A DNA stretch of 48,263 bases from a virus. Its lineage: Duplodnaviria > Heunggongvirae > Uroviricota > Caudoviricetes. Made by a program: the position numbers and the translations under genes. The stretch is from IMG/VR virus record IMGVR_UViG_2534681708_000006, positions 1 through 48,263 of that record, one strand, 5' to 3'. How positions within the stretch are numbered: position 1 is the first letter of the stretch; every line of letters starts with the position of its first letter. Shown piece after piece: positions 8,959-36,709 of the stretch. The notes beneath the pieces are model-generated. The model was given only the letters and a program-made list of their open reading frames with translations. It did not search any database and was not told where the DNA came from.

Positions 8959-9364
8959 GCACATTGAATCAGTGCTGTTAGCCCTGGCCGCTGAAAAAGG
9001 GCAGGCATGGGTAGCCAATGCAATTACTGAAGAATATCTGCGCCAGGGGGGCGGCGAATTGCCCCTGGTACCAGGCAAGGACTGGAACAATCATCAGAAT
9101 ATCTATCACCGTTGGTTGAAAGGTGAAACGAAAGCGCAAAGGGAAAAAATTCAGAAACTGATCCCTGCGGTTCTGGCAATTCTTCCGCGCGAGCTGCGTC
9201 ACCGACTCTGCATCTTCGATACCCTGGAACGCCGTGCATTACTGGCGGCGCAGGAAGCGTTGAGTACGGCAATTGATGCGCATGATGACGCAGTCCAGGC
9301 CGTTTACCGTAAAGCGCATTTCAGCGGCGGCGGGTCTTCCGACGATTCTTTCATTGTTCATTAA
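8942..9364 (+). CDS. ydaT: YdaT-like protein (Rac prophage YdaS/YdaT module)
   Basis: 140 aa, MKIRHEHIESVLLALAAEKGQAWVANAITEEYL...; start overlaps ydaS end; GGAG RBS. Confidence 0.7.
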   Translation: MKIRHEHIESVLLALAAEKGQAWVANAITEEYLRQGGGELPLVPGKDWNNHQNIYHRWLKGETKAQREKIQKLIPAVLAILPRELRHRLCIFDTLERRALLAAQEALSTAIDAHDDAVQAVYRKAHFSGGGSSDDSFIVH

Positions 9365-9427
9365 GCAAAAGTTTCCATGCTGTTTGTGCTTATTGTAAGC
9401 CACCGGGCAGCATCATACGGGGCAATT

Positions 9428-10447
9428 ATGGCCGCATTACCATACATGCAACTGTACATAGCTGATTACCTGGCTGACACCATGCATTTGTCAGCAGAGG
9501 AGCACGGTGCGTATTTGTTGCTGATGTTCAATTACTGGCAAACAGGAAAGCCAATACCCAAAAACAGGCTGGCAAAAATTTCCCGTCTGACTAACGAGCG
9601 ATGGGCTGATGTGGAACCATCCTTGCGGGAGTTTTTTTGCGATAACGGCGATGAATGGGTGCATCTTCGGATTGAGGAAGATCTGGCATCAGTCAGGGAA
9701 AAATTAACCAAAAAATCAGCCGCCGGAAAAGCATCTGTTCAAGCCAGAAGAAGCAGAAAGGAAGCAGATATTCAAAAAAAACAAGAGAGAGATTTAACAG
9801 GTGTTCAAACAAATGTTGGTGTGGTGTTTGAACATGACGCAAACACAAAAGCAACTAATAAAGATACAGATACAGATCTAAAAGAATTAAACCCCACACA
9901 TAGCGCGCGCGTGCGCGAGAGTGCTCCGACCAGTGAGTCGAATGGTTTGCCGTTGCAGGCAGCGGAACCTGATTACCTGGAAGGCCTGAGCGAACCTATC
10001 GGAAAATTTCCGATGACCGACGGCTGGAATCCGTCGCCGGATTTCCGACGACGGGCTGCACTGTGGGGAGCGGCTCCGCCAGAGCCGGAATTTACACCTG
10101 CTGAACTTGCCGCCTTCCGGGACTACTGGGCAGCGGAGGGGAAAGTTTTCACGCAGGTTCAGTGGGAACAGAAATTCGCCCGTCACGTAAATCACGTCAG
10201 GGCGCAGGTTAAACCAGTCAGCAAGGGGGTGAACCATGCAGCAAAGCCAGGTGGCACTGCATCACGGGCAGTTCAGGAAATTCGGGCAGCACGTGAGCAG
10301 TGGGAACGTGAAAATGGATTTATCCGCGACGGAAACGGCGTGGAAACTGTGGGAACTCATGGGGGAGGTTTATTCGAACCGCTGGACCCAGAAGAACGGG
10401 GCCGCACCTTCGAAGCTCTGGATTGCACAGATTGGCGCGATGACTGA
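9428..10447 (+). CDS. YdaU-like DUF1376-type replication-associated protein
   Basis: N-terminus MAALPYMQLYIADYLADTMHLSAEEHGAYLLLMFNYWQTGK; start at internal ATG of ORF 9377..10447; 3-prime 211 nt overlap the next ORF. Confidence 0.55.
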   Translation: MAALPYMQLYIADYLADTMHLSAEEHGAYLLLMFNYWQTGKPIPKNRLAKISRLTNERWADVEPSLREFFCDNGDEWVHLRIEEDLASVREKLTKKSAAGKASVQARRSRKEADIQKKQERDLTGVQTNVGVVFEHDANTKATNKDTDTDLKELNPTHSARVRESAPTSESNGLPLQAAEPDYLEGLSEPIGKFPMTDGWNPSPDFRRRAALWGAAPPEPEFTPAELAAFRDYWAAEGKVFTQVQWEQKFARHVNHVRAQVKPVSKGVNHAAKPGGTASRAVQEIRAAREQWERENGFIRDGNGVETVGTHGGGLFEPLDPEERGRTFEALDCTDWRDD

Positions 10448-10901
10448 GCAGCAAATCCGTCAGGTCTGCCGCCAGTGCATGGACCGCTGCCGGACGGGTG
10501 AAACATGGCCTCCGGACCTGGCTGAGTTTGTGGCGCTGATTTCGGAGAGTGGGGCAAATCCATTTGGTCTGACGGTGGATGCTGTGATGGAGGAGTACCG
10601 CCGCTGGCGCAATGAGTCCTGGCGATACGACGGAAGTGATAAGTACCCGTGGTCTCAGCCTGTGCTGTATCACATTTGCCTCGAGATGCGTTCAAAGGGG
10701 ATTGAGCGCCAGATGACCGAAGGGGAGTTAAAACGGCTTGCAGAACGGCAACTGACGAAATGGGCAAAGCATGTTGGTAATGGCCTGAGCGTTCCGCCAG
10801 TCCGGCGACAACTGGCGGCACCCAAACGCCCGTCGGGGGCAACGCCAATTGAGTTGCTGAAACAGGAATATGAACGCCGGAAAGCGGCTGGTTTTGTTTG
10901 A
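10236..10901 (+). CDS. Replication protein P-like (putative helicase loader)
   Basis: 221 aa; ATG preceded by AGGGGG; segments MTEQQIRQ...[10 protein letters not shown] and C-terminus resemble recalled lambda P. Alternative starts 10314/10359/10440. Confidence 0.45.
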
Positions 10902-10935
10902 GTTGAGAAGTGATTTTTACCGGGAGGAAATTTTA

Positions 10936-11697
10936 ATGGAGACTGTTTTTGACGCACTGAAAGCAATGGGGAAAGCCACGTCGGTAGAACTGGCTGCGCG
11001 ACTTGATATCAGTCGTGAAGAAGTGCTGAACGAGCTGTGGGAACTGAAAAAGGCTGGTTTCGTTGATAAAAGCGTATACACCTGGCGTGTGGCTGATAAC
11101 AACGTTCAGCAGGAACAGACCGCACCGACAGAACAGCCGGAAGAAACCACCACGGCAACAGTCGCGAAAATTTCGGAGAGCGATTTAACTGCGACGATTG
11201 AACAACGTGGCCCACAAACGGCGGATGAACTGGCTACATTGTTCGGTACCACATCACGCAAAGTGGCTTCAACGCTGGCTATGGCAATCAGCAAAGGACG
11301 CCTGATTCGCGTAAATCAGAACGGTAAATTTCGTTACTGCATACCGGGCGATAATTTACCAGCAGAGCCGAAAGTTGTATCGGTAGTGAAAACACCTGGT
11401 AAAGCCTTTCCTCAGCGAGCCGGTGTTGCGTTACCAGTACAGGAAGCGGCAACACAGGAAGATATTAAAACAGAAACTATGGCGGACATTGTGCAGTCGC
11501 TGCCATCGTTTACCGAAACGCGGGCGGATGGCCTGATTTTACTATCGCTGCACATGGCTAACCGTGAGCTGCGCCGGGCGAAAAGTCATGTCCAGAAGTG
11601 GGAGCGAGTCTGCGCCGCGCTGCGGGAGCTGAACAAGCACCGGGATATTGTCCGACAGATTGTCGATTCCTCCAGTCGTATTGTGTCGGAAAAGTGA
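10936..11697 (+). CDS. Hypothetical protein with N-terminal winged-helix-like segment
   Basis: Start METVF... with GGGAGG RBS inside ORF 10870..11697. Confidence 0.5.
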
Positions 11698-11713
11698 TTC
11701 CAGGGGAGGGCTT

Positions 11714-12136
11714 ATGGCAAAAGTATCTACACAGGAAGAGCGAGAAAAAATTAAAGGGCAGGTTGTTGAACTCGTACGCCAGAGTGGGCGTGAGACGTTA
11801 CGACAACTGGAAGCGAAAACAGGTGCGACAAGATATCTGATGAGCGTTCTCGCCAGAGAGCTGGTTGCCAGTGGCGATGTATACAACTCTGGTTACGGGT
11901 TATTTCCGTCTGAACAGGCGCGTAAGGACTGGCAAAACGCCCGCAAAAAACTCTCAAGGGCAAAGGTGAAGAAAACGGCTGTGGTTGATCCGGACCTCAT
12001 CAGGTCATTACCAGACGGAGAAATACGCCGCTACGACAGGAGCCAGAACATAATCTGTCGCGAGTGCCGGAAAAGCGAAGTTATGCAGCGTGTACTGGCG
12101 TTTTATCGGGGAAACTTTCAGGAGGTGCTGTTTTGA
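11714..12136 (+). CDS. Hypothetical protein (140 aa) with C-terminal CxxC
   Basis: Start MAKVSTQ... with GGGGAGGG RBS inside ORF 11648..12136. Confidence 0.5.
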   Translation: MAKVSTQEEREKIKGQVVELVRQSGRETLRQLEAKTGATRYLMSVLARELVASGDVYNSGYGLFPSEQARKDWQNARKKLSRAKVKKTAVVDPDLIRSLPDGEIRRYDRSQNIICRECRKSEVMQRVLAFYRGNFQEVLF

Positions 12137-12296
12137 GCCAAATTAATAATCGGAACTTCGTGAAGTGAAAGAGAAAGCATAATCCAAATCTGAATAATTA
12201 AATTCAGCACTGTGAATAAAATAGAGTCCTTAACCTGAGGGATTTCTGCACCCTCAGAACAGCAGGAGGCCGCCCGAAAGGGCGGTGGAGATAATA

Positions 12297-12818
12297 ATGG
12301 AAATAACTAAAGAACGATTATTGGAAATAGCAAATCTTAGTGATAGGGCATTAAGTGATGGGAGAATTATTTCTCCTGATGCTTATGAATCAGTTACAAG
12401 TATAGAAATAATAACGATGGCTAGAATGCTTCTTGCGCGCTTCAAAGAAGAATATAAAAAACAGGTAGATAGCAATGCTAATATATATGATACTTTGGAC
12501 AGTTGGGGAGCCTGGGCTGTAGCTGGAAATAGTTCTATTGATTGGCAGGAAATAGCTGATAAATATAAAAATGTTGTCCCTCATGGTAAAAAATCACGTC
12601 GTCAGTGCAGCAATGATGAAGGGCGAGTTATTGACATTAGTATCCTTAGGTTAGAAAGATATAAGCAACAAGAATATGAGTTAATTGTTGCTCATTTCGT
12701 GATTGGTTTATCTCTTCGTGCTATTGCAAAACAACAAGGATGTTCAGATGGAACAATTCGTAAAAGATTGCAAAAAGCCTTAGGTTTTTTGACTGGATAT
12801 ATAGCAATTACCAGTTAA
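12297..12818 (+). CDS. Q-family antiterminator-like protein (second paralog) with C-terminal sigma-region-4-like HTH
   Basis: 173 aa; WGAW motif and C-terminal LSLRAIAKQQGCSDGTIRKRLQKALGFL resemble my recollection of the 933W/phage-82 Q family; RBS GGTGGAG; stop shares the TTAA tetranucleotide with the convergent gene. Confidence 0.4.
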   Translation: MEITKERLLEIANLSDRALSDGRIISPDAYESVTSIEIITMARMLLARFKEEYKKQVDSNANIYDTLDSWGAWAVAGNSSIDWQEIADKYKNVVPHGKKSRRQCSNDEGRVIDISILRLERYKQQEYELIVAHFVIGLSLRAIAKQQGCSDGTIRKRLQKALGFLTGYIAITS

Positions 12819-13456
12819 GAGTCAGCGGGTTTTTTACCAGTGTAATGGTATAAGGATACTCCCATGTGTCTTACATGATATGGAAGTGCTGTTGCTGGAT
12901 GCTTTGTGATACTCTTAAAGCGGAGGGGAGAGCCTTCCGCTTCAATTTCTGCGTCCGAAACGGTCGTAGAGAAAAATTCTTTCCATTCATTGAATTTTAC
13001 TGCTGATTTGTCAGACTTTATATAAATTAGAATTCCTCCATGATCGTCACGTGACGTACCCGTGCCGTAACGTTCGGTTAGCTGAATCCAGCCATTATGA
13101 ATAGATTTTGGGCCTCTCCATAATTTTGCTTCACCGATCCATTCGAATTTTCCGAATTGATGTTTAACTAATAAATCAACGTGACCGCCATGTTGAGTAT
13201 CATGTTCAACATCATAAAACCTACCTTTCAGGAAATTTTTGATCGACGCTGTTAGCTCGTCCTCTCCCCACTTAGCATCTTGATAGAAGTGTTTGTCATT
13301 TTCTAAATTCTGAATAGCGTCGTCTAAATCTTCATAGAGTTGCTTTACAAAAATATTTTTGTCTGCAGCTAATTTTCTTTGAACCATTCCCCTAAATTCA
13401 GGATCCATTCTAATTAATGATTGAAGGTCTGCAGTACAGATGTTTACATCACTCAT
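12815..13456 (-). CDS. Uncharacterised protein with PD-(D/E)xK-like motif (operon gene 3)
   Basis: 213 aa from ATG with GGAGAG RBS; segment GHVDLLVKHQFGKFEWIGEAK fits the D...ExK nuclease core; overlaps gene 2 by 8 nt. Confidence 0.5.
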   Translation of the reverse strand: MSDVNICTADLQSLIRMDPEFRGMVQRKLAADKNIFVKQLYEDLDDAIQNLENDKHFYQDAKWGEDELTASIKNFLKGRFYDVEHDTQHGGHVDLLVKHQFGKFEWIGEAKLWRGPKSIHNGWIQLTERYGTGTSRDDHGGILIYIKSDKSAVKFNEWKEFFSTTVSDAEIEAEGSPLRFKSITKHPATALPYHVRHMGVSLYHYTGKKPADS

Positions 13457-13877
13457 GCAGACTCTCCAAAAGACTCGAAGGAGTAAAGTATGGATAAAGA
13501 TACTGGCTAAAATTATCAACCAATTCGCCAGTTTCTGGATGGTAAAAACTTCCTGTGTCTAAAGCATAGGAAATAAGATCATCTTCAACTGGTATTGGTT
13601 CTTCCGTTAAATTATCAATGTATTGAAAATGCATATCCAATAGGTGTGCTTTATAGCTAGATAAATAATCAGTTGCTTTTATTAGCAGGATATAGTCATC
13701 TTTCGTATCAGTTAGATAGGTCAAACCATTGATAAGGGTTTTGTATGTAAAGTGATTGATATTTTTAGCATCTTTACTAACCAGAAAAAGAAAAAGATCA
13801 CGACACACACTGCGAACAGGATCATTAAAATCCTGCTCTATTTGCGTGATAATGTCGTGATATATACTCTTTTTCAT
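13449..13877 (-). CDS. Uncharacterised small acidic protein (operon gene 2)
   Basis: 142 aa; ATG overlaps the stop of gene 1 (ATGA). Confidence 0.5.
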   Translation of the reverse strand: MKKSIYHDIITQIEQDFNDPVRSVCRDLFLFLVSKDAKNINHFTYKTLINGLTYLTDTKDDYILLIKATDYLSSYKAHLLDMHFQYIDNLTEEPIPVEDDLISYALDTGSFYHPETGELVDNFSQYLYPYFTPSSLLESLHE

Positions 13878-14965
13878 TTATGGCCTGATGATCTCGCTCT
13901 TCTTTTCTCTTCACAGGACTTAACAGAATCCAATATTTTTTCAACAATAAATATAATCGAATCAATGTTGTTACAGTTCTTCGCAATTGCTTCATGCAAC
14001 CTAATTCTAGGATTATCAAGCATTGTCCTTTTCCCTGGTAATATTAACTCTACTGATAAAATATGTGAAGAACTTTGTGGTAAATCCCAAATTTTTCCCA
14101 ACTTAAACTTTGTCAATATTGGGCTTGCGGACTCTCCACTATGATGGTAAACATCTTGACGCAAACACTTTTGACTTGGTTTGAGTTTTAAAGAACTTGT
14201 ATTGCCATCTGAGGTGATAAAAGATACATGAGAAATTCTGCCATCTACTTTTTCGTAAAGATCTTGTATTGAACCAAATAACTCAAGGGGATTGTTTAAA
14301 ATAACGCCAGCTTCTTTTTTTATAAATTTAGCCACAAGGTATTGTTGAGGCTGTGATTCACTTCTTGGAAGGATAGATAAATCAATCGTAAGAATTAATA
14401 TTTTTTCTGCAGGCATTAGCATGATGGTATTAAAGCATTGCGTGACTTGGCGTGTTTTGCATTTTATTTCTCCACCATTAGCACGTAATTCCATACCCGC
14501 ATCGCTAAGATGTGTTGGGTCAAGCTCTATCACTTCAGTGTAATACGCTTTGGATAAAAAAACAGCAGTGTCAATTTGTTTATCACGAATGATATCTTGA
14601 CGTAGTTCAGCAAAATGCAGCTCAGTATCAGCAACTAACAGCTCCTCTCTGGATAAAGGAGTTGGGTATTTTTCTGAGAAGGGGCTATTGTCCTTTTTCT
14701 GATTTGTGAAAATTGTTTGTAATTTTGCTACGTCTTCATCGGTGATTCTATAAATAGAAAGTAATCGATTCCCGCTAAAAATTAAACCTTTCCAGAAATC
14801 GTCGATTCTATCTTTTAGGTCGGGATTATGCTGAACTACACTATTTACACGTTCAATAAAAAGGGGTAATCCTTGGGCCGTTACACCCAGTGATGAACCA
14901 AGAAGCTTACGGGTGTTGCGCCAGCCAAAGCGTGAATTGATGTTTTTTACTGTTTGCTCAAGCAT
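13874..14965 (-). CDS. Uncharacterised protein (operon gene 1, 363 aa)
   Basis: ORF 13874..14971; start taken at ATG 14965 preceded by AAGGAAG; no Walker or other named motif found. Confidence 0.5.
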   Translation of the reverse strand: MLEQTVKNINSRFGWRNTRKLLGSSLGVTAQGLPLFIERVNSVVQHNPDLKDRIDDFWKGLIFSGNRLLSIYRITDEDVAKLQTIFTNQKKDNSPFSEKYPTPLSREELLVADTELHFAELRQDIIRDKQIDTAVFLSKAYYTEVIELDPTHLSDAGMELRANGGEIKCKTRQVTQCFNTIMLMPAEKILILTIDLSILPRSESQPQQYLVAKFIKKEAGVILNNPLELFGSIQDLYEKVDGRISHVSFITSDGNTSSLKLKPSQKCLRQDVYHHSGESASPILTKFKLGKIWDLPQSSSHILSVELILPGKRTMLDNPRIRLHEAIAKNCNNIDSIIFIVEKILDSVKSCEEKRRARSSGHK

Positions 14966-15252
14966 TAACACTTCCTTAATTTTTCCTTAACAATTTAGGG
15001 TGCTAAACTTCTTTGCGCAGTTTACACAAAAAAATAGTGCGTACGCAAAAACTATCTAACATGATGAGCTTTAACCGGGAAATTTGTATATGTTGTGAGC
15101 ATAAAGTTGGCTGAGAAATCTAAAACGGGTCGAATGACTACGGGTGCTTGAGGCTATCTGCCTCGGGCATGCCACCAAAGGCCGATAGAGAAAAGTCCCA
15201 GTTAACATTACGCGTCCTGCAAGACGCTTAACATTAATCTGAGGATATATCT

Positions 15253-15312
15253 ATGACTTGCACCTATAGGTTACCTCTTACGTGCCGAAAGGCAAGGAGA
15301 AGCGGGCTATGA
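15253..15312 (+). CDS. mok-like leader ORF (19 codons) translationally coupled to hok
   Basis: ATG with GAGGA RBS; its TGA stop overlaps the hok ATG (ATGA). Confidence 0.3.
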   Translation: MTCTYRLPLTCRKARRSGL

Positions 15313-15464
15313 AGCAGCAAAAGGCGATGTTACTCGCTCTAATCGTCATCTGTTTAACCGTCATAGTGACGGTACTGGTAACGTGGAAAGACCTCTGCGA
15401 GGTGCGAATCCGAACCGGTCAGACGGAGATCGCTGTCTTCACAGTTTACGAACCTGAGGAGTAA
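15309..15464 (+). CDS. hok: Hok/Gef-family type I toxin (small membrane host-killing peptide)
   Basis: 51-aa translation MKQQKAMLLALIVICLTVIVTVLVTWKDLCEVRIRTGQTEIAVFTVYEPEE, near-identical to my recollection of HokD/HokC; AAGGAG RBS. Confidence 0.85.
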   Translation: MKQQKAMLLALIVICLTVIVTVLVTWKDLCEVRIRTGQTEIAVFTVYEPEE

Positions 15465-15740
15465 GAGACCCGGCGGGGAGAAATCCCCGTCACCTCTGAT
15501 GTGTCAGGCATCCTCAATGCACCCGATTTTGCCCCTCTCGATATTTTGTTTTTAATTAATAAATATTATTAAACAGAATGTACAATGTCATAATGTTCTC
15601 ATTGTTGTTTTTTATATCACGCGCAGTTTACCTTGTATTCTTAATTTATATGTTTTATATATTGTTGTGTTTTCTTGGTTATTGCCTCATGTGAAATATT
15701 AATTAGAATCCTTTGGGCTTGATTTGCGCGCAGGGAGAAG

Positions 15741-15965
15741 ATGGATGGCCCCCGTAAAGGGGAACGCTATTTACCTGGAAGGATTCTAATGAAGAGTTTT
15801 GATAAATTGCGTGAAGCTTTGAGTGAAAATGGACTCTATGCGGTGCGTATCGAAAATGGAGAAATAATTTACACAACTGTAATCCCGGAAGATCATATAA
15901 TTTTATCTGTTGAAGCTTTTATCGAATACATTGAAAGGATTGGTTTTAAGGTCATACGGGATTGA
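15741..15965 (+). CDS. Small hypothetical protein (74 aa, or 58 aa from ATG 15789)
   Basis: Two candidate starts each with an RBS; a TTGCCT-N16-TAGAAT promoter-like sequence lies about 40 nt upstream; function unknown. Confidence 0.4.
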   Translation: MDGPRKGERYLPGRILMKSFDKLREALSENGLYAVRIENGEIIYTTVIPEDHIILSVEAFIEYIERIGFKVIRD

Positions 15966-16024
15966 GTTATAATCTATAAGCCAGCCTGAACAACTGGCAA
16001 CCTACAGCGCCATTGGAGAATGCA

Positions 16025-16624
16025 ATGGCGCATATACAACTGGTCAAACAAACATCTTCTGGATTACTTCTCCCGGCGACACCGGAGAGTTGTGATTTCC
16101 TGCATCAAATAAAGATAGGTGAGTGGATACACGCTGATTTTAAGCGCGTTCGTAACTACGCATTTCACAAGCGTTTTTTCAAACTCCTGCAACTCGGATT
16201 TGATTACTGGACTCCGGTCGGTGGGGCGATCACGTCCCGCGAACGAAAACTGGTGTCCGGTTTCGTTGATTATCTGTGTGACTCAGTCGGCAGGGAACAT
16301 ACGCCAGCCCTGAGTGATGCCGCAGAACAATATCTGAATACCATTGCGATACACAGAACCTGCGATACGGCATTGCTAAAGTCATTTGATGCTTTCCGTG
16401 AATGGGTAACTATTGAGGCCGGATTTTACACCGAGCATTTTTATCCGGACGGTAACCGCGGGCGCAGAGCGAAATCCATCGCTTTTGCGAACATGGACGA
16501 TACCGAGTTTCAGCAGGTTTATAAATCCGTACTGAATGTGCTTTGGAACTGGATTCTGTTCCGAAAATTTTCCTCTCCTAAGGAAGTAGAAAATGTGGCC
16601 GCACAGCTACTGGAGTTTGCGTAA
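16025..16624 (+). CDS. nin-region phage protein (DUF1367-like by recollection)
   Basis: 199 aa from ATG with GGAGA RBS; stop overlaps next gene start (TAATG). Confidence 0.45.
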   Translation: MAHIQLVKQTSSGLLLPATPESCDFLHQIKIGEWIHADFKRVRNYAFHKRFFKLLQLGFDYWTPVGGAITSRERKLVSGFVDYLCDSVGREHTPALSDAAEQYLNTIAIHRTCDTALLKSFDAFREWVTIEAGFYTEHFYPDGNRGRRAKSIAFANMDDTEFQQVYKSVLNVLWNWILFRKFSSPKEVENVAAQLLEFA

Positions 16625-16914
16625 TGGTGGACTTACGTAAAGCGGCGCGGGGGCAGATGTGCACCGTCAGAATTCCTGGCTACTGCAATCACGATCCGGA
16701 AACGTCTGTGCTGGCGCATTACCGACTGGCGGGAACGTGCGGAACAGCGATAAAGCCACACGATATGCAGGCAGCGATTGCTTGTAGCTCGTGCCATGAT
16801 TTAATCGACGGGCGGGTAAAAAACAGCGATTACACCAAAGAAGAATTACGCCTGATGCATGCAGAAGGTGTTTTTCGCACACAAGAAATCTGGAGAAAGG
16901 AGGGATATTTATGA
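16624..16914 (+). CDS. YbcO-like DUF1364 protein (Cys/His-rich, putative nuclease)
   Basis: 96 aa; CTVRIPGYC...CSSCHDLIDGR resembles recalled DLP12 YbcO. Confidence 0.55.
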   Translation: MVDLRKAARGQMCTVRIPGYCNHDPETSVLAHYRLAGTCGTAIKPHDMQAAIACSSCHDLIDGRVKNSDYTKEELRLMHAEGVFRTQEIWRKEGYL

Positions 16915-17453
16915 TTTACCCAACGCATACAGGAAAAAGCGGAGAACACCTTCGTCTCAACACGCTGGAAAGTGTCTGGATTCAGGGAAAACTACGTATG
17001 TGGGGGCGCTGGTCGTATATTGGCGGCGGTAGATCAGGGAATATGTTCAATCAGTTGCTGGCGTCAAAAAAGTTGACGAAAACAGCCATCAATGAAGCCC
17101 TGTTTAGAATGAAAAAAGCGGGAATAGAGAAACCTGAACTGGAATCATTTTTGCGAGAAATTATCAATGGCAAGCAAAAGAGCTGGCTGGTGCATTGTAC
17201 TGATGCCGAGGCGCTATGCATTGATCGGGTGATTAGTGAAGTGCTGGCAGATCATCCGGGGTTGATTTGTATCCTCCAGCAGCGGTATGAAGGACGGGGG
17301 ATGACTAAGCGCAAAATGGCTGAATTGCTGAATGATGCACACCCAGAGTGGTGTTTTAGCACATGTGAAAAGCGAATTGCTAATTGGTTGGCTGTTGCTG
17401 AGTATGCGCTATACATTCCCATGCGAGAATCACTTGCTCAAAAAATAGCTTGA
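16911..17453 (+). CDS. Late-gene antitermination protein Q (Q-family) at canonical position
   Basis: 180 aa; AGGAGG RBS; WGRW motif and C-terminal ...CFSTCEKRIANWLAVAE pattern parallel the other Q-like ORF; immediately upstream of a tR-prime-like terminator and the toxin/lysis genes. Confidence 0.55.
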   Translation: MIYPTHTGKSGEHLRLNTLESVWIQGKLRMWGRWSYIGGGRSGNMFNQLLASKKLTKTAINEALFRMKKAGIEKPELESFLREIINGKQKSWLVHCTDAEALCIDRVISEVLADHPGLICILQQRYEGRGMTKRKMAELLNDAHPEWCFSTCEKRIANWLAVAEYALYIPMRESLAQKIA

Positions 17454-17535
17454 TTTTTTACGCACAAACTGCTTCAATTTCGCTACGCTTCGCAAAGCTG
17501 TATCGCGAGGTGAGTCTGCGCAGGAACTTTAATAG

Positions 17536-17562
17536 AACCCGCCTTCGAGCGGGTTTTGTTTT
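17536..17562 (+). terminator. tR-prime-like intrinsic terminator downstream of Q (AACCCGC-loop-GCGGGTT + T-run)
   Basis: GC stem followed by TTTTGTTTT about 85 nt after the Q stop. Confidence 0.55.
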
Positions 17563-17840
17563 ATTCATACGTCCGTAGTATACACTTCTGATTATATTTT
17601 CACATTCTGACTGTTCCTGTTAAATAAAGATTGTATTAATTTTAATATTTTGTTGAATACATGGTGTTTCTTATTTAATTAGCGCGGGATGTGATGGTGG
17701 TATGTTTCTGGTTAATTAAATGAGTAAATAGATGTCAGCTAACCATGGAGGACAGCAACTCTCTGATTGACTTTTAATTATTTCTTAGATTTATTTTGAT
17801 GGAGGCGTTGCTATTATTTTTAAGTAAGAGGTGAAATATT

Positions 17841-32199: not shown

Positions 32200-33536
32200 T
32201 GGGATTTAATATCGTCACGGTGAATGTGTCCCAGACCATCGGGGTCATACCCTCGAATCTGCAGCAGATGTCTGCGGTTCTCTCGTTTGGCTCCACGACT
32301 CATGAACCGGGGAAGCCTGTATTACTCACCAGCAATCAGGATATTAACGATCTGGTTAAAAATCCGATTGCTGCGTTGTCGGCGGCTGCCGCAGGAAAAT
32401 CTGCGGCAAACGTCACCGTTACGATGACGCTTCCGGAAGGGAGCAACATCCGACGCGAAAACAGTTCTGAGGTGAAAATTGTTGTTTCCGGGTGTTTGCC
32501 CGACGCGTGGAATGGCGAATATACTGCTACCGTCACGGATGAAAAAACACTGACCTGGACGATTGCTGATTCTCAGCTTTCCGGTTCGCCAGTGACACTG
32601 GGGCAGTTTTCCATTGTCGGCAGTGAAAATCTGGTGACGGCAGTAAACACGTTTTTTGCCCAGGGAAATTCAGTTGGGATTTACCTGCTGGAGCTGGGAG
32701 TACAGAAAGGCGGGGTCAGTAAGGAAATCGCTGCACTGAAAGCTTATATGGAAGATCCGCTCCTGCGTTTTTACGCGTATCTGGTGCCGCAGTCGTGGGA
32801 TGGTGACGCGGAGTTTATCAGTCTGGCAAAACTCCACACCGCCAACGAAGCGATGCAGTATTTCTTCGTGCTGACGAAAACGCCGGACGACACGAATTAC
32901 GTTTCGCCTTATGCCGGTATTAAGTCGGTTATTGCAACGGCGGATGATACGTACCCGGCGACAAACGCGGCAGCAGCCGTAATGTGGAACTATGTTTCCG
33001 CATCACCTTCAGAAATCAACAAGGTGCCGCCGATGGCATTTCGCTATCTGCAGGCGGTAAACGCCCACAAGGGCAAAAATTCCATTCTGGCCACGATGAC
33101 GAAGCAGAATATTAACTACGTCGAAACGGGGGCTGAGGGCGGAATCTCCAACACGATCCTGGTGAAAGGCGTTACCAGTGACGGTAACGATATGACGTAC
33201 TGGTATTCCGTGGACTGGGTGCAGATTAATGTCGATATGCAGCTCGCCAACACGGTGATCAACGGCAGCAATAACCCAATTAACCCGCTTTACTACAACC
33301 AGGACGGGATCGACCGTCTACAGCAGGTCGCACAGGCGGTGTTCAATACGGGCGTATCTTACGGCCTGGTCAACGGCCAGCCTGTCGTCGATGCAGTGCC
33401 TTTCCGCCAGTATATCAACACGAATCCGAATGATTACGGTATCGGGCGTTATGCGGGCCTTTCGGCCTCCTATACGCCGATGCGCGGATTTGTCGAAATC
33501 ATTTTTAACATCAATGTGACAATGCAGCTTTCGTGA
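32199..33536 (+). CDS. Putative tail sheath protein
   Basis: 445 aa followed by a 147-aa tube-sized gene, chaperone pair and tape measure. Confidence 0.5.
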   Translation: MGFNIVTVNVSQTIGVIPSNLQQMSAVLSFGSTTHEPGKPVLLTSNQDINDLVKNPIAALSAAAAGKSAANVTVTMTLPEGSNIRRENSSEVKIVVSGCLPDAWNGEYTATVTDEKTLTWTIADSQLSGSPVTLGQFSIVGSENLVTAVNTFFAQGNSVGIYLLELGVQKGGVSKEIAALKAYMEDPLLRFYAYLVPQSWDGDAEFISLAKLHTANEAMQYFFVLTKTPDDTNYVSPYAGIKSVIATADDTYPATNAAAAVMWNYVSASPSEINKVPPMAFRYLQAVNAHKGKNSILATMTKQNINYVETGAEGGISNTILVKGVTSDGNDMTYWYSVDWVQINVDMQLANTVINGSNNPINPLYYNQDGIDRLQQVAQAVFNTGVSYGLVNGQPVVDAVPFRQYINTNPNDYGIGRYAGLSASYTPMRGFVEIIFNINVTMQLS

Positions 33537-33547
33537 GGGACTGAACC

Positions 33548-33991
33548 GTGCCTAATCCAATGATCCCCGTTGGCACCCTTAACCGGGTTCGCGCCAGCGT
33601 TAAATTCACCTCTCATTCCGAACTGAATGTGTCCGCCTCATTTCTGGCAAAAGAAGGCGTCGAATTGTCCTTTCAGGGCAATATCACGGAGTTTTTACCC
33701 GCCATGACGGGAGCCGTGCAGTCGCCGCAGCCATACATGATTTTACAGGCGCGTGTTCATCTGCTGCGTAGCCAGGCGCTGGGGAAACAATTCAAGGCGC
33801 AATGGGAAAAGAACGCCACGATCGGCGACGCAAAAGTGTATAGCGACAGCACGGTGTTCGGTGACTTCGATATCTATAACACGGCGATCACCAACGTGCA
33901 GGATATGACCTTCGCCGGGGGCGAGCCGGGTGTGGCCATCACCATTACCGGTACGTATTACATCAACTCTGAAATGTGGGATTTGGTATGA
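33548..33991 (+). CDS. Putative tail tube protein
   Basis: Size and position. Confidence 0.45.
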   Translation: MPNPMIPVGTLNRVRASVKFTSHSELNVSASFLAKEGVELSFQGNITEFLPAMTGAVQSPQPYMILQARVHLLRSQALGKQFKAQWEKNATIGDAKVYSDSTVFGDFDIYNTAITNVQDMTFAGGEPGVAITITGTYYINSEMWDLV

Positions 33992-34605
33992 AAATCGCGC
34001 GAAATTTAAACCTGATTATTCCTGTCCAGACCGAGAAAGGTAAAGCCTGGATTCACGCCACGCCGATCAGCAAAGAGGTGTTTAAAGAGCATTTCTTCAT
34101 CCTGAGTAAAACCTTTTCTGCCATTTTTTCTGAAGGTCTTGGCGTCGTTGCGGGTCCGCGTATCGCTTTTCTGATGCTGGAGCGGATCTCGCGTGATTCC
34201 GGTATCTGGGACGATGATAAGGGAGTTCGTAATACGCTGGTGAACGAAATAATTCGCCTGGCAAACCTTGTTTATCCGGTGGAGGGCAAAGGTTACGACA
34301 CAATCCCTCTTGATATGGCGCTGGAGCGTGAAATCGTTGAGCTGGATGATGTTGCGGGTGAACTCGTTTTTTTTACATGCGTCTCGTCGATAAATTCACC
34401 GGAGCAGGCGAAGGGGACTATGGATGTGGTCAATGGAATATGGAGCACTCAATGCTCGTCATTGAATCTTACGGAATGGATCGCTTCATTGCCGACATTG
34501 AAATCAGCCGCCAGTTCTGGCGCGACGGCGAACACGTCATCAGCGACATCCTCGACTACTCAGCCGGAGCCGGATTCAGAGACATCTGTGCAGATTCCGG
34601 TCTGA
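33976..34605 (+). CDS. Putative tail assembly chaperone (zero-frame product)
   Basis: Lies between tube and tape measure; contains a T8 slippery run at 34367..34374. Confidence 0.45.
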   Translation: MGFGMKIARNLNLIIPVQTEKGKAWIHATPISKEVFKEHFFILSKTFSAIFSEGLGVVAGPRIAFLMLERISRDSGIWDDDKGVRNTLVNEIIRLANLVYPVEGKGYDTIPLDMALEREIVELDDVAGELVFFTCVSSINSPEQAKGTMDVVNGIWSTQCSSLNLTEWIASLPTLKSAASSGATANTSSATSSTTQPEPDSETSVQIPV

Positions 34606-34670
34606 ATGTAAAAACGGCAGCTCAGTTTCGTGAGCTGCTCAAATTCAAAAATCCCGCAGGAGTATTGTGA
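34377..34670 (+). CDS. -1 frame extension ORF (candidate frameshift fusion product with the chaperone)
   Basis: -1 frame opens at 34362 just before the T8 run and ends at the tape-measure start; no RBS of its own. Confidence 0.35.
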   Translation: MRLVDKFTGAGEGDYGCGQWNMEHSMLVIESYGMDRFIADIEISRQFWRDGEHVISDILDYSAGAGFRDICADSGLNVKTAAQFRELLKFKNPAGVL

Positions 34671-36709
34671 TGGCTGGTAACCAGATGCCAGTTCTGACGC
34701 TGGATGTTAATGAAGAACACCTCAAGCGGCTTGAGGCGATATTTGAAAAGTATCGCAATGGTCTGATGATTGGCCCTGCCGGAACGCCAATGAAAATTCC
34801 GGGGCAGAGTGGGCGCGGCGTGGGCGCTGGTTTGCCCGTGGCGGCAAATTCTGGTCGGACAGGACCGGATGTATCCGGGAGAGTGAGGGACGAAAAAGGG
34901 CGCTTTGTTGGCAGCGGAAAAACACCTGATTCGCTGGTGAGCAACTATAAAGGTCGCGGCGAAACGATGTTTGATAAGTATCTCAGTAGTCTGGGTAAAA
35001 ACGCTCAGGGGACGCTGAAAACTTACAAGCAGATCAATTCTACGCTACAGACGACCACTTCGAGATTAAACAACCTGTTTAAAACCACCGTATCGTGGGG
35101 GACAAAACTTGCAGTTATGGGCGTTGCCGGGCCGTTTGGCTTTGGCATGATGGCTCGTAATGTTGTAGAGAAACAGAAAAATGCTGATGAATTGCAGGCA
35201 ACGCCAGGAGAGTTAAAGGCGGCAGAAAGCACTTATTCGCCTTATTTTTCCGGTGTTGGTAATTTGCTCAATACACTGGCAGCCGCGCAGAATGACACTC
35301 AGCATCCTGCCTACAACGGGCTAATTGGGTTAGGGATAAATCCTAAAAAAGGGGCAGCAGAAAATCTCCCTGTGTTGTTAGAAAGAGTTGCTGCTCTTGC
35401 AAAGGAGTATGAGGGAACAGGATTAACTCAAGGGATGTTAAACGGGAGGGGGCTGGGTTGGGTTAACTTTGGCTTTGCTAACCAGTTAGTCAAATATCAG
35501 GACAAAATACCTGAACTCAACAAAGAGTTTTTATTGCGGGCTTCTCAGAATGACTCGTTGCTCACATCTGGACATACAAGTCAGTATCAGAATCTTACCA
35601 GTAACTTAGAAAATAACTGGGACCGGCTTACCAGCGGATTTCAGGGAGCGCTGGCCGGGAATGCAGACGCTTTAATCAGAATTTCTGATGGTACTACGAA
35701 TGCTGCCCTGAATTTCATGAATGGTGAGAACTTTAAAAGGATTCTGACAGATGTAGAAACGGGGCTGGATAAACTTGGTAAGTACGTTAATGGCCCGGAT
35801 TTTAATAACGACCTGAACAATTTTGCCGAAAACGTTGCAAAGGTCACCAAAGCTCTTGGCGGATTTGTTGGCTTTGCGGTTGAACATCCCTGGCTTTTTG
35901 GGGCCGCAGTGCTTGCCGGGCCATCAAGAGTTGGTGCTGTGGCAGCTACAACAACCGGAGTTGCCGCCCGTGTTGTAGGCGGAAGCCTTCTAGGGGCTAC
36001 AGCTGGAACAGTAGCAGGATTGGCTATTCCTACGAATAACACACCTACCACCAGTGAGGAAATGAAAGGGCTGGAAGGCCGTTTTAATTTTGAATATTTT
36101 AATGAAGTGCAGGAGTGGCAAAAAAACAATCCTGGCAAGGTCTGGCCTGGAGGATTGCAGAAATATTCGAACAATGTAAACAGATCAACATATTTATCCA
36201 GAGGGATCAGGAATAACAATCCCGGAAACCTTAATTTCGCAGGACAAAAAGGGGCTACTCTGGAATCAGGGCCAAATGCCCGTTTTGCCAGCTTCCCGAC
36301 GATGCTGGAAGGTATCGCCGCCTTAGATCGGCAGGTCATGCTATACCTGAAACGAGGCAAAAATACGATTGATCAGATTATTGATATTTATGCCCCTTCA
36401 TCTGATGGAAATAACACATCGTCCTATAAAAGCTATCTCTCTCAGTACACTGGATTAGGTGTTAAGGAGAAAATCGATGGTTCTAATTTTGAGCTAATGA
36501 GAAAGCTAATTCAGGGCATTATTAACCATGAAAATGGGGCCGCCGCTCGTGCTGTAAGTGGCGATGATGTGATGCGGGCGCTGGCAATGAACCGGGGGAA
36601 CGTATATTCACCAAATAATGCTTCTCAGGTAATCAGGCTCGAAGTTCAACAAAAACCAGGTTCAGATATACTGGCACAACTCGCCGGAATGCAACAAATA
36701 CCGGGGTAA
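34670..36709 (+). CDS. Putative tail tape measure protein
   Basis: 679 aa, Gly/Ala-rich hydrophobic central segments; AGGAG RBS; ORF track start GTG 34667. Confidence 0.55.
   Translation: MAGNQMPVLTLDVNEEHLKRLEAIFEKYRNGLMIGPAGTPMKIPGQSGRGVGAGLPVAANSGRTGPDVSGRVRDEKGRFVGSGKTPDSLVSNYKGRGETMFDKYLSSLGKNAQGTLKTYKQINSTLQTTTSRLNNLFKTTVSWGTKLAVMGVAGPFGFGMMARNVVEKQKNADELQATPGELKAAESTYSPYFSGVGNLLNTLAAAQNDTQHPAYNGLIGLGINPKKGAAENLPVLLERVAALAKEYEGTGLTQGMLNGRGLGWVNFGFANQLVKYQDKIPELNKEFLLRASQNDSLLTSGHTSQYQNLTSNLENNWDRLTSGFQGALAGNADALIRISDGTTNAALNFMNGENFKRILTDVETGLDKLGKYVNGPDFNNDLNNFAENVAKVTKALGGFVGFAVEHPWLFGAAVLAGPSRVGAVAATTTGVAARVVGGSLLGATAGTVAGLAIPTNNTPTTSEEMKGLEGRFNFEYFNEVQEWQKNNPGKVWPGGLQKYSNNVNRSTYLSRGIRNNNPGNLNFAGQKGATLESGPNARFASFPTMLEGIAALDRQVMLYLKRGKNTIDQIIDIYAPSSDGNNTSSYKSYLSQYTGLGVKEKIDGSNFELMRKLIQGIINHENGAAARAVSGDDVMRALAMNRGNVYSPNNASQVIRLEVQQKPGSDILAQLAGMQQIPG

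Follow-up and report, generated by a model that had tools for sequence, protein, structure and literature searches.

The window analysed here is a whole 48,263-nucleotide stretch of viral DNA (IMG/VR record IMGVR_UViG_2534681708_000006). It is a prophage inserted at ttcA/intR, the Rac site, in an E. coli of the Shiga-toxin type, and our subject is the gene at 12297..12818 on its plus strand. Judged by its sequence, the encoded protein is truly related to Q, the switch protein of phage late genes, and its clade appears to be paired with a palindrome present as a single copy per locus. In the window this palindrome lies at 15038..15050, and it is the probable Q-binding element (QBE) of the clade. 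Between the gene and the palindrome there is a slot for antisense genes, which is a hotspot of freely exchanged cargo including recognised anti-phage systems. The Q gene, the cargo, and the palindrome of the window seem to derive from a widespread late module composed of a Q gene, an antisense cargo slot, and a late promoter cassette. The protein most likely controls the neighbouring cargo genes, not the late genes.

The Q-like protein and its palindrome

The longest open reading frame spans 12285..12818 on the plus strand, and PGAP places the start at the ATG at 12297, after a GGAG, in identical E. coli genomes. The product has 173 aa (the stop codon is counted in the coordinates). A profile search assigns it to PF06530 (Phage_antitermQ; 108.7 bits, cut-off 26, E = 2.1e-31), and the match extends over 110 of the 118 profile positions. 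It also matches PHROG 79, "anti-termination protein Q-like" (E = 6e-34), and the Q21 chains 6p18/6jnx over Q21 residues 19-99 (E = 1.4e-3 for the sequence alone, 5.6e-6 when a profile is used). Thus, the assignment to the Q family that a sequence-only reading of this DNA had made is confirmed. That reading likened the gene to the Q of 933W and phage 82. Q proteins come in three families, with Q21 in PF06530, Q-lambda in PF03589, and Q82 in PF06323, and 933W Q belongs to PF06530 (PMC9388147). The likeness to 933W is therefore right (same family, 37% identity), and the one to phage 82 is wrong. The family call itself is not new, since the PGAP product name "antiterminator Q family protein" is already public.

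The C-terminal part of the protein carries a helix-turn-helix similar to that of sigma region 4 (12666..12791, plus strand; residues ~124-165), with recognition helix CSDGTIRKRLQKALG and matches to PF08281, PF04545, and TIGR02937. The resemblance to sigma-70 region 4 extends over residues ~119-165, with E = 2.4e-8 for TIGR02937 and E = 1.6e-5 for PF08281, the latter at 24.9 bits, slightly below its cut-off of 25.7. The fold of Q21 is akin to region 4 of extracytoplasmic function (ECF) sigma factors (bioRxiv 10.1101/651190). The helix-turn-helix of the window protein is canonical and does not have the loop insertion of Q21.

We refer to the protein of the window and its full-length relatives as the long form. 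The short-form homologues have 113-117 aa, are ~57% identical to it over the core, and occur in 582 IMG/VR stretches. Residues C149, S150, D151, G152, R155, and K156 are invariant or nearly so when long and short forms are compared. The short forms align with the long form only from residue ~60; they miss an N-terminal helical module of ~60 aa (12297..12476, plus strand), which belongs to PHROG 3323, with no function assigned there. An N-terminal module of ~55 aa of this kind (ERLxEIAxL...SDGxIIxPDAY..V.S.EI...AR.LL) also heads unrelated proteins of 189-207 aa without a Pfam family (P0124, P0126-P0128). The idea that the module is a fused copy of DUF7167, a gene that follows the same leader in other prophages, was rejected for zero similarity.

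The long-form gene is present in 68 of 5,426 complete E. coli genomes, and it has a recombination breakpoint inside. E2348/69 and STEC367 are natural carriers. Codons 1-105 go with the phage backbone (dS, the synonymous divergence, 0.03-0.45; omega 0.23-0.62), and codons 106-168 go with the cargo (dS 0.55-2.0, which is saturated; omega 0.12-0.36). By these estimates purifying selection acts on both parts, and intact copies are the majority, with a few frameshifted ones (L044-L048). The sequence-only reading had offered that the gene could be a remnant of another phage. The origin is well put, given that the gene and the palindrome seem to come from a late Q/late-promoter module, but a gene with a C-terminal omega of 0.12-0.36, mostly intact and found in 68 complete genomes, is not decaying. 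The AT-richness reported by the same reading is borne out by a GC content of 0.33-0.40 over ~12100..15100, against 0.50-0.59 upstream.

The palindrome is found 2.2 kb downstream of the gene, beyond the cargo, and consists of TGCGTACGCA plus AAA. When the right-hand junctions of the six types of cargo known behind the long form are aligned, the sole invariant block is TGCGTACGCA followed by an A-tract, and the rest is unalignable; the palindrome is kept in all six types. The exact string GCGTACGC+AAAA has a single copy in the 48-kb window. Long-form loci have one copy each in 40 of 42 cases, and the other two loci end within ~850 bases of the gene. The palindrome lies 55-77 nt upstream of the first cargo start codon in five of the six long-form cargo types. 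We also find GCGTACGC once in ~70 short-form loci, that is, in almost every locus that extends far enough. Over the 40 long-form and ~70 short-form loci, its distance past the Q stop is 0.6-3.8 kb. As a negative control, prophages with the same leader and hok gene but without the Q-like gene do not have the motif. The base before the 8-mer is always T in the long form, which makes the full 10-bp palindrome TGCGTACGCA, and it is C in 64 of 68 short forms, which makes CGCGTACGCA.

Of the 33 species-representative genomes that reach far enough downstream, 31 have this arrangement of Q gene, cargo, and palindrome; they represent more than 15 Enterobacterales genera, Klebsiella to Providencia. The two exceptions are Klebsiella sp. 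BIGb0407 (L211) and Dryocola sp. BD613 (L233), both with a short-form Q, where ~7 kb of downstream sequence contains no [ACGT]CGTACG[ACGT]AAA.

What ties the palindrome to the protein? The late cassette is nearly identical across five Q clades except for the palindrome, which changes with the recognition helix. Helix CSDGTIRK, in the window long form and the short forms, goes with GCGTACGC; CSDGYIGK (QuuD, ev207) with ACGTACGT; CSDTCIGK (933W, VT1-Sakai) with ACGATCGT; RSDCWVGR (PhiR40_1) with ACAATCGT; and K[SD]EK[AL]IRIE (cdtI, Stx2_12E129) with GCGGTCCGC. It is because the palindrome tracks the recognition helix over five clades that we take it as the probable QBE. Two-fold symmetry is kept in three of the four variant palindromes and broken only in ACAATCGT. 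In 933W the palindrome extends to 14 bp, TTTACGATCGTAAA, though the leftward promoter described below is absent there, which argues that the symmetry is more than that of two divergent -35 hexamers. The missing Q21 loop would fit a different, symmetric mode of binding for this clade.

Perfect 14-bp palindromes, TTTACGATCGTAAA and TTTACGTACGTAAA, are found in 933W (L248 1323..1336), VT1-Sakai (L253 3923..3936), and K-12 DLP12 (L130 6196..6209). Each coincides with the -35 region of a late promoter, annotated or presumed, and they are candidate QBEs for the Q proteins that drive stx.

The cargo slot, its promoter, and the late module

The cargo of the window is an AT-rich operon of three genes on the minus strand (12815..14965), with genes at 12815..13408/13519, 13449..13877, and 13874..14965. 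They match PHROGs 9664, 11490, and 12777, all without an assigned function. The operon converges with the Q-like gene, and as the sequence-only reading had noticed, the two share the tetranucleotide TTAA at 12815..12818: the plus-strand TAA is 12816..12818, and the minus-strand TAA is the complement of 12815..12817. That reading saw no terminator between the two genes, and our search of both strands near this junction predicted none either. By eye, the last cargo gene (12815..13519, minus strand), which reads ...GHVDLLVKH...IGEAKLW..., resembles the D...E.K nuclease motif.

Six unrelated cargoes are found behind the long form (38 IMG/VR loci plus genome loci), all on the minus strand and abutting the Q stop. 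One is the set of three genes as in the window, and the others encode proteins of 159 + 304 aa (DUF6731), 493 + 352 aa, 410 + 398 aa, 182 + 94 + 241 aa, and 199 + 311 aa. The six have 32-38% GC, start -4 to ~30 nt from the Q stop, and have hok/sok next to them. The short-form slots hold more than 20 cargo types. With those behind the long form this makes over 25 types, and the cargo proteins group into 66 clusters at 80% identity. Over 40 long-form and ~70 short-form loci, the cargo between Q and the palindrome has 30-41% GC and is almost always on the minus strand. Cargo families are related across the two forms. Genes 3 and 2 of the window have relatives, 33% and 27% identical, in a three-gene cargo of 240/130/350 aa behind a short-form late Q (L058, L062, L069, L086), and cargo types D and E have 40-80%-identical relatives in short-form slots. 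Among the cargo of related loci are Kiwa KwaB (E = 2e-126), a caspase paired with a ThsB-like TIR protein, a HEC-04-type ATPase with a cytosine methylase, PDC-S33, and PDC-M53A. A recent import of the long-form C-termini together with cargo from a short-form locus was considered and rejected, as they are 62-73% identical to all short forms and about equidistant from them.

Read on the minus strand, the palindrome is TTTTGCGTACGC, and it contributes to a predicted promoter that points leftward into the cargo. The palindrome plus A-tract contains the predicted -35, TTGCGT (15048..15043, minus strand), and the predicted -10, TAAACT (15019..15024, minus strand), is 18 bp away. The transcript would start near 15012, ~47 nt before the ATG at 14965. 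The palindrome thus overlaps the -35 and the upstream spacer of the cargo promoter. In 61 distinct flanks, the spacer between TAnnnT and TTGCGT is 17 bp in 40, 18 in 6, and 16 in 2 (48 of 61 in all), over a background of ~2 flanks at any other offset, or ~3% per offset. Past the TAnnnT hexamer the DNA is cargo-specific. Since the spacing to TAnnnT is conserved while the DNA beyond it belongs to the cargo, the slot itself would supply a sigma-70 promoter to any insert. This leftward promoter is kept in five of the six long-form cargo types.

The short forms indicate where this arrangement comes from. A short-form Q gene occupies the canonical late position, after RusA/DUF968 and before the holin gene, with convergent AT-rich cargo next to it. 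The cassette that follows reads aAAAAnnCTAAC GCGTACGC AAAAAcTATtG TAnnnT Gt TAAGAGTGGTtACTtcG.CAC, then has a hairpin with a T-run, and then the holin gene. TAnnnT comes 11 bp past the 8-mer in 68 of 68 unique short-form cassettes, TAAGAG is found in 65 of 66, and a terminator in 52 of 66. Two -10 registers, at offsets 6 and 11 past the 8-mer, fit the short-form consensus and leave the exact start of the late promoter ambiguous; the one at 11 is present in 68 of 68 and fits 933W too. Within ~85 bp, the record of phage 21 has a -35, the QBE (ATTGAGCA AATGAGCA, -27..-12), a -10, a transcription start, TAAGCTG as the pause element, and a terminator. The elements of the short-form cassette are arranged alike, so that it has the layout of a Q-dependent late cassette, and the palindrome lies inside the promoter, close to where the QBE has been mapped in phage 21. 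In K-12 DLP12 the order is quuD (plus), nmpC (minus), cassette, essD, and its lysis cassette is reported to be controlled by the DLP12 Q (Rueggeberg et al. 2013, 2015, cited in PMC7918800). In 933W and VT1-Sakai the cassette follows Q directly, the slot is empty, and a putative pR'/tR' is annotated ahead of stx.

In the ancestral module, then, the palindrome sits between back-to-back promoters, and the rightward late promoter is followed by the invariant TAAGAGTGG box and an intrinsic terminator. Its position is nearly equal for both promoters, ~-31..-24 for the rightward and -33..-26 for the leftward one. The window retains a degenerate remainder of the late-promoter cassette (15051..15141, plus strand), with a TAACAT at 15057..15062 and with neither a TAAGAG box nor a terminator. 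Among eight long-form cassettes, one has TAAGAG, one has the -10 at the fixed offset, and none has a convincing terminator. A small peptide ORF between the palindrome and hok was considered as well and dropped, as its frame is not conserved.

What the protein may do

We propose, tentatively and at somewhat less than an even chance, that the long form derives from Q and binds DNA, with the cargo promoter as the one target left to it, and that the cargo is shut off or re-programmed upon induction. After induction the early operon would be transcribed and the protein made. It would bind the palindrome at 15038..15050 and cover the -35, and the cargo promoter would be turned off, or otherwise re-programmed. 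The expression of defence-type cargo would thereby be tied to the lytic decision of the prophage. Selection has preserved the palindrome, the leftward promoter, and the protein in the long form, while the rightward elements decayed. The proposal builds on family membership, the pairing of gene and palindrome, the co-variation of helix and palindrome, the geometry of the promoter, and the disappearance of the late parts, all of which are shown; that the protein binds DNA, when it is made, and in which direction it acts are inferred. Repression on induction is favoured because the site overlaps the -35 and the gene is in the early rightward operon. Such repression would stop a defence or abortive-infection cargo from interfering with the lytic growth of its own prophage, and the need for prophage self-immunity is documented for BstA (PMC8585504). 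The sequence-only reading had listed a regulator of the island as one of its options. That option is the best supported of those it gave, by a route it had not seen, namely a palindrome overlapping the -35 of the operon promoter.

Several observations pull the other way. The core with which Q21 contacts RNA polymerase is still conserved, in the residues common to Q21, 933W Q, and QuuD, and a plain repressor would have no need for it. Occupancy need not mean repression, because in the short-form loci the palindrome must tolerate an active rightward promoter. The timing of expression follows from gene orientation only, because no promoter is predicted in the leader. Cargo type D has no clear leftward -10. 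The cargo of the window has no recognised defence domain: its genes match no Pfam or NCBIfam family, and the sole PADLOC match is a weak one of gene 3 to PDC-S54 (E = 0.002). Finally, an AlphaFold2 model from a 58-sequence alignment reached a pLDDT (predicted local distance difference test) of 55, too poor for a fold comparison.

A broader version of the proposal is more doubtful, though we still regard it as possible. Throughout the 933W/QuuD/short-form clade, a palindromic QBE between back-to-back promoters would let the late switch control a promoter-equipped defence slot too, and the long form would then be a Q without antitermination, an induction-coupled off-switch for the cargo that provides self-immunity.

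The same features can be read with the opposite sign. By analogy with RfaH, a protomer facing leftward could load onto polymerase and aid its passage through an AT-rich operon prone to Rho and H-NS, so that the protein would activate or antiterminate the cargo. The conserved polymerase-contacting core would then have a use, the palindrome has nearly the same position relative to both promoters, and the long form has the full 10-bp TGCGTACGCA where the short forms have CGCGTACGCA. However, the leftward promoter looks self-sufficient (TTGCGT, 17 bp, TAnnnT), cargo leaders are cargo-specific and have no conserved pause element or terminator, and a short-form Q is made only late, yet defence cargo should be on in lysogens. 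We consider activation unlikely. We are more sceptical still of a protein that has remained a rightward antiterminator, one that would load beside the palindrome and carry transcription over hok/sok into the nin genes and DUF1133, sparing early transcription the crossing of antisense cargo. The ancestral short-form module is organised that way, cargo type F keeps TATTGT and TAGGAG, and type A keeps the TAACAT noted above. The near-complete loss of TAAGAG box, fixed -10, and terminator from the long-form cassettes speaks against it, as does the finding of no plus-strand terminator in 15000-16100. The long form also co-occurs with late Q genes of three or more kinds, which presumably have promoters of their own.

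Two other explanations need no activity of the protein at all. The sequence-only reading had suggested antisense silencing, in which read-through from the gene lowers operon expression by collision or RNA pairing and the protein is irrelevant. The geometry allows for it: the stop is shared, the terminator is absent, and every type of cargo converges with Q at every locus, with gaps of -4 to ~30 nt. Yet an untranslated antisense transcript is expected to be ended by Rho, and silencing of this kind is not needed for explaining the conserved features. It leaves the purifying selection, the invariant palindrome, and the co-variation of helix and palindrome unexplained, and we judge it improbable. 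The gene could also be a passive relic, caught in the early region as a fragment of a late module and kept only as the flank of a recombination hotspot. A breakpoint that sends the N-terminal two-thirds with the backbone and the last ~60 codons with the cargo, and the few frameshifted copies, would be natural on these terms. An omega well below 1 over deeply diverged alleles, a 12-nt motif invariant amid unalignable DNA, and the intactness of most copies would not be, and make a relic very unlikely. Least credible to us is a decoy Q, made in the lysogen to occupy the identical QBE of incoming or co-resident short-form phages; their late transcription would be blocked, which amounts to a kind of superinfection exclusion. 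Its recognition helix and motif are indeed those of short-form phages, and the neighbourhood next to hok/sok is of defence type, but no promoter is predicted for expression in a lysogen, and the constant copy of the palindrome in cis would have no explanation.

Surroundings of the gene and comparison with known systems

The gene order in the window is replication genes, DUF1627, DUF977 (Ren-like), the Q-like gene, the three minus-strand genes, hok/sok, DUF1367, YbcO, DUF1133, toxin genes, and lysis genes. The Q-like gene thus comes directly after the replication and DUF977 genes, and not at the canonical late position before the lysis genes. The sequence-only reading placed another Q-like gene, and a paralog of this one, at 16911..17453. 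That gene does have the canonical place and matches PHROG 753, "Q-like", but it is DUF1133 (PF06576, E = 3e-104), and its PF06530 score is borderline, 26.7 bits against the cut-off of 26. To call the two genes paralogs was an overstatement, as the proteins have no detectable pairwise similarity (BLASTP E = 0.2). AntQ of Gifsy-1 (PMC4825925), weighed as an earlier case of a second Q, appears to be the regular late Q of its phage.

To the right of the cargo there is a complete hok/sok type I toxin-antitoxin locus (15142..15464, plus strand; Rfam sok RF01794, 91.5 bits), and hok/sok is found to the right of the Q-like gene in all 40 of the long-form loci that reach that far. The palindrome is 104-107 bp from the start of the hok mRNA in four of the six cargo types, with poorly conserved DNA between. 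Just past DUF1133, at 17841..19059 and further right (L004 27091..30803), are two AB5-type toxin gene pairs. One is a scabin-related ADP-ribosyltransferase with a subtilase-family B subunit, and the other an enterotoxin A/B pair flanking the lysis genes; their site is the classic cargo position downstream of the late promoter. In the STEC367 prophage (L004), which matches the structural region of the window, the gene at 33252..34688, directly after the large terminase, is named "anti-CBASS protein Acb1 family protein" by PGAP. This label may be misleading, since the portal protein is usually encoded there.

Ahead of the gene lies a conserved leader of ~120 nt with three hairpins (12175..12296, plus strand). 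The last hairpin (12269..12286) is GC-rich, has a GAAA loop, and abuts the GGAG ribosome-binding site. The leader is conserved behind at least six different upstream genes. It also occurs in phage vB_EcoM-606R7 and in ~90 other E. coli genomes, where it is followed by unrelated small genes, DUF7167 among them. As it precedes unrelated genes in prophages without the Q-like gene, we regard it as part of the phage backbone. Its predicted fold has -37.8 kcal/mol (z = -3.5). The changes observed in the stem of the GAAA-loop hairpin are one-sided only, C>U with G-U pairs kept, so that covariation does not demonstrate the leader as a functional RNA structure. An Rfam scan of 9000..19000 reported sok alone, with no known RNA family for the leader, and nut-like and put-like elements were not detected; the leader has no predicted terminator either. 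The leader may serve in RNA processing or attenuation, or it may act as a nut-like element.

No earlier description of a Q/late-promoter defence slot was found in the literature searched, which left subscription journals mostly outside, so that a prior description is possible. Not found in that literature were the arrangement of a Q gene, a promoter-equipped antisense slot, and a palindrome within the late promoter; the co-variation of recognition helix and palindrome; and a long-form Q left with nothing but the cargo-promoter half. Should the palindrome be the site that is bound, TTTACGATCGTAAA becomes a candidate QBE for the Q proteins of 933W type, which drive Shiga toxin 2 expression. A very common defence-keeping site of the lambdoid prophages of Enterobacterales would be defined by two searchable landmarks, a PF06530 gene and the palindrome, and the landmarks would be a practical route to new defence genes, the three-gene operon of the window being one example. 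How does a prophage keep abortive-infection-type cargo off its own lytic cycle? A late or early regulator acting on the cargo promoter would be an answer. And should the long form turn out to do nothing but repress, an antiterminator would here have become a regulator that binds an operator.

Among known systems, Q21 of phage 21 (PF06530; 6P18, 6JNX) shares with the window protein the Pfam family, the WGAW...C..DD.G core, and a DNA-binding region similar to sigma region 4, and in both cases the DNA element is inside a promoter, upstream of the -10. The two proteins are only 26% identical, and the window protein is without the 9-residue loop of the Q21 helix-turn[loop]-helix. The Q21 QBE is a tandem direct repeat (ATTGAGCA AATGAGCA), whereas the window element is a palindrome. 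Unlike that of Q21, the window gene is away from the late genes and has the N-terminal module in addition, and neither a pause box nor a terminator follows its site.

The Q protein of 933W and QuuD (YbcQ) of K-12 DLP12 are closer, being of the same PF06530 clade, without the loop insertion, and 37% and 33% identical to the window protein. Their cassettes have a palindrome and A-tract at the same place, with ACGATCGT and ACGTACGT, and DLP12 also has antisense cargo (nmpC) between Q and the cassette. They differ in occupying the canonical late position with TAAGAGTGG and the terminator kept ahead of stx or lysis genes, and in having neither the N-terminal module nor a hok/sok neighbour. The short-form modules (for instance, P0067 and P0086) are the most similar in organisation, with 57% core identity, nearly the same recognition helix, the identical GCGTACGC+AAAA, a convergent AT-rich slot into which the same leftward promoter is built, and cargo families related to those of the long form. 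However, the short form is the only Q of its phage and has the lysis genes next to it, whereas in the long form the rightward parts are gone, and next come hok/sok and another late regulator that is unrelated to it.

As a site for cargo, the slot of the window is comparable to the defence hotspots of P2 and P4 (Rousset et al. 2022, PMC9122126), which also have conserved flanks and exchanged anti-phage systems on a temperate element. Unlike in those hotspots, the flanks in the window are a regulator gene and its own probable binding site, and the slot would supply the promoter.

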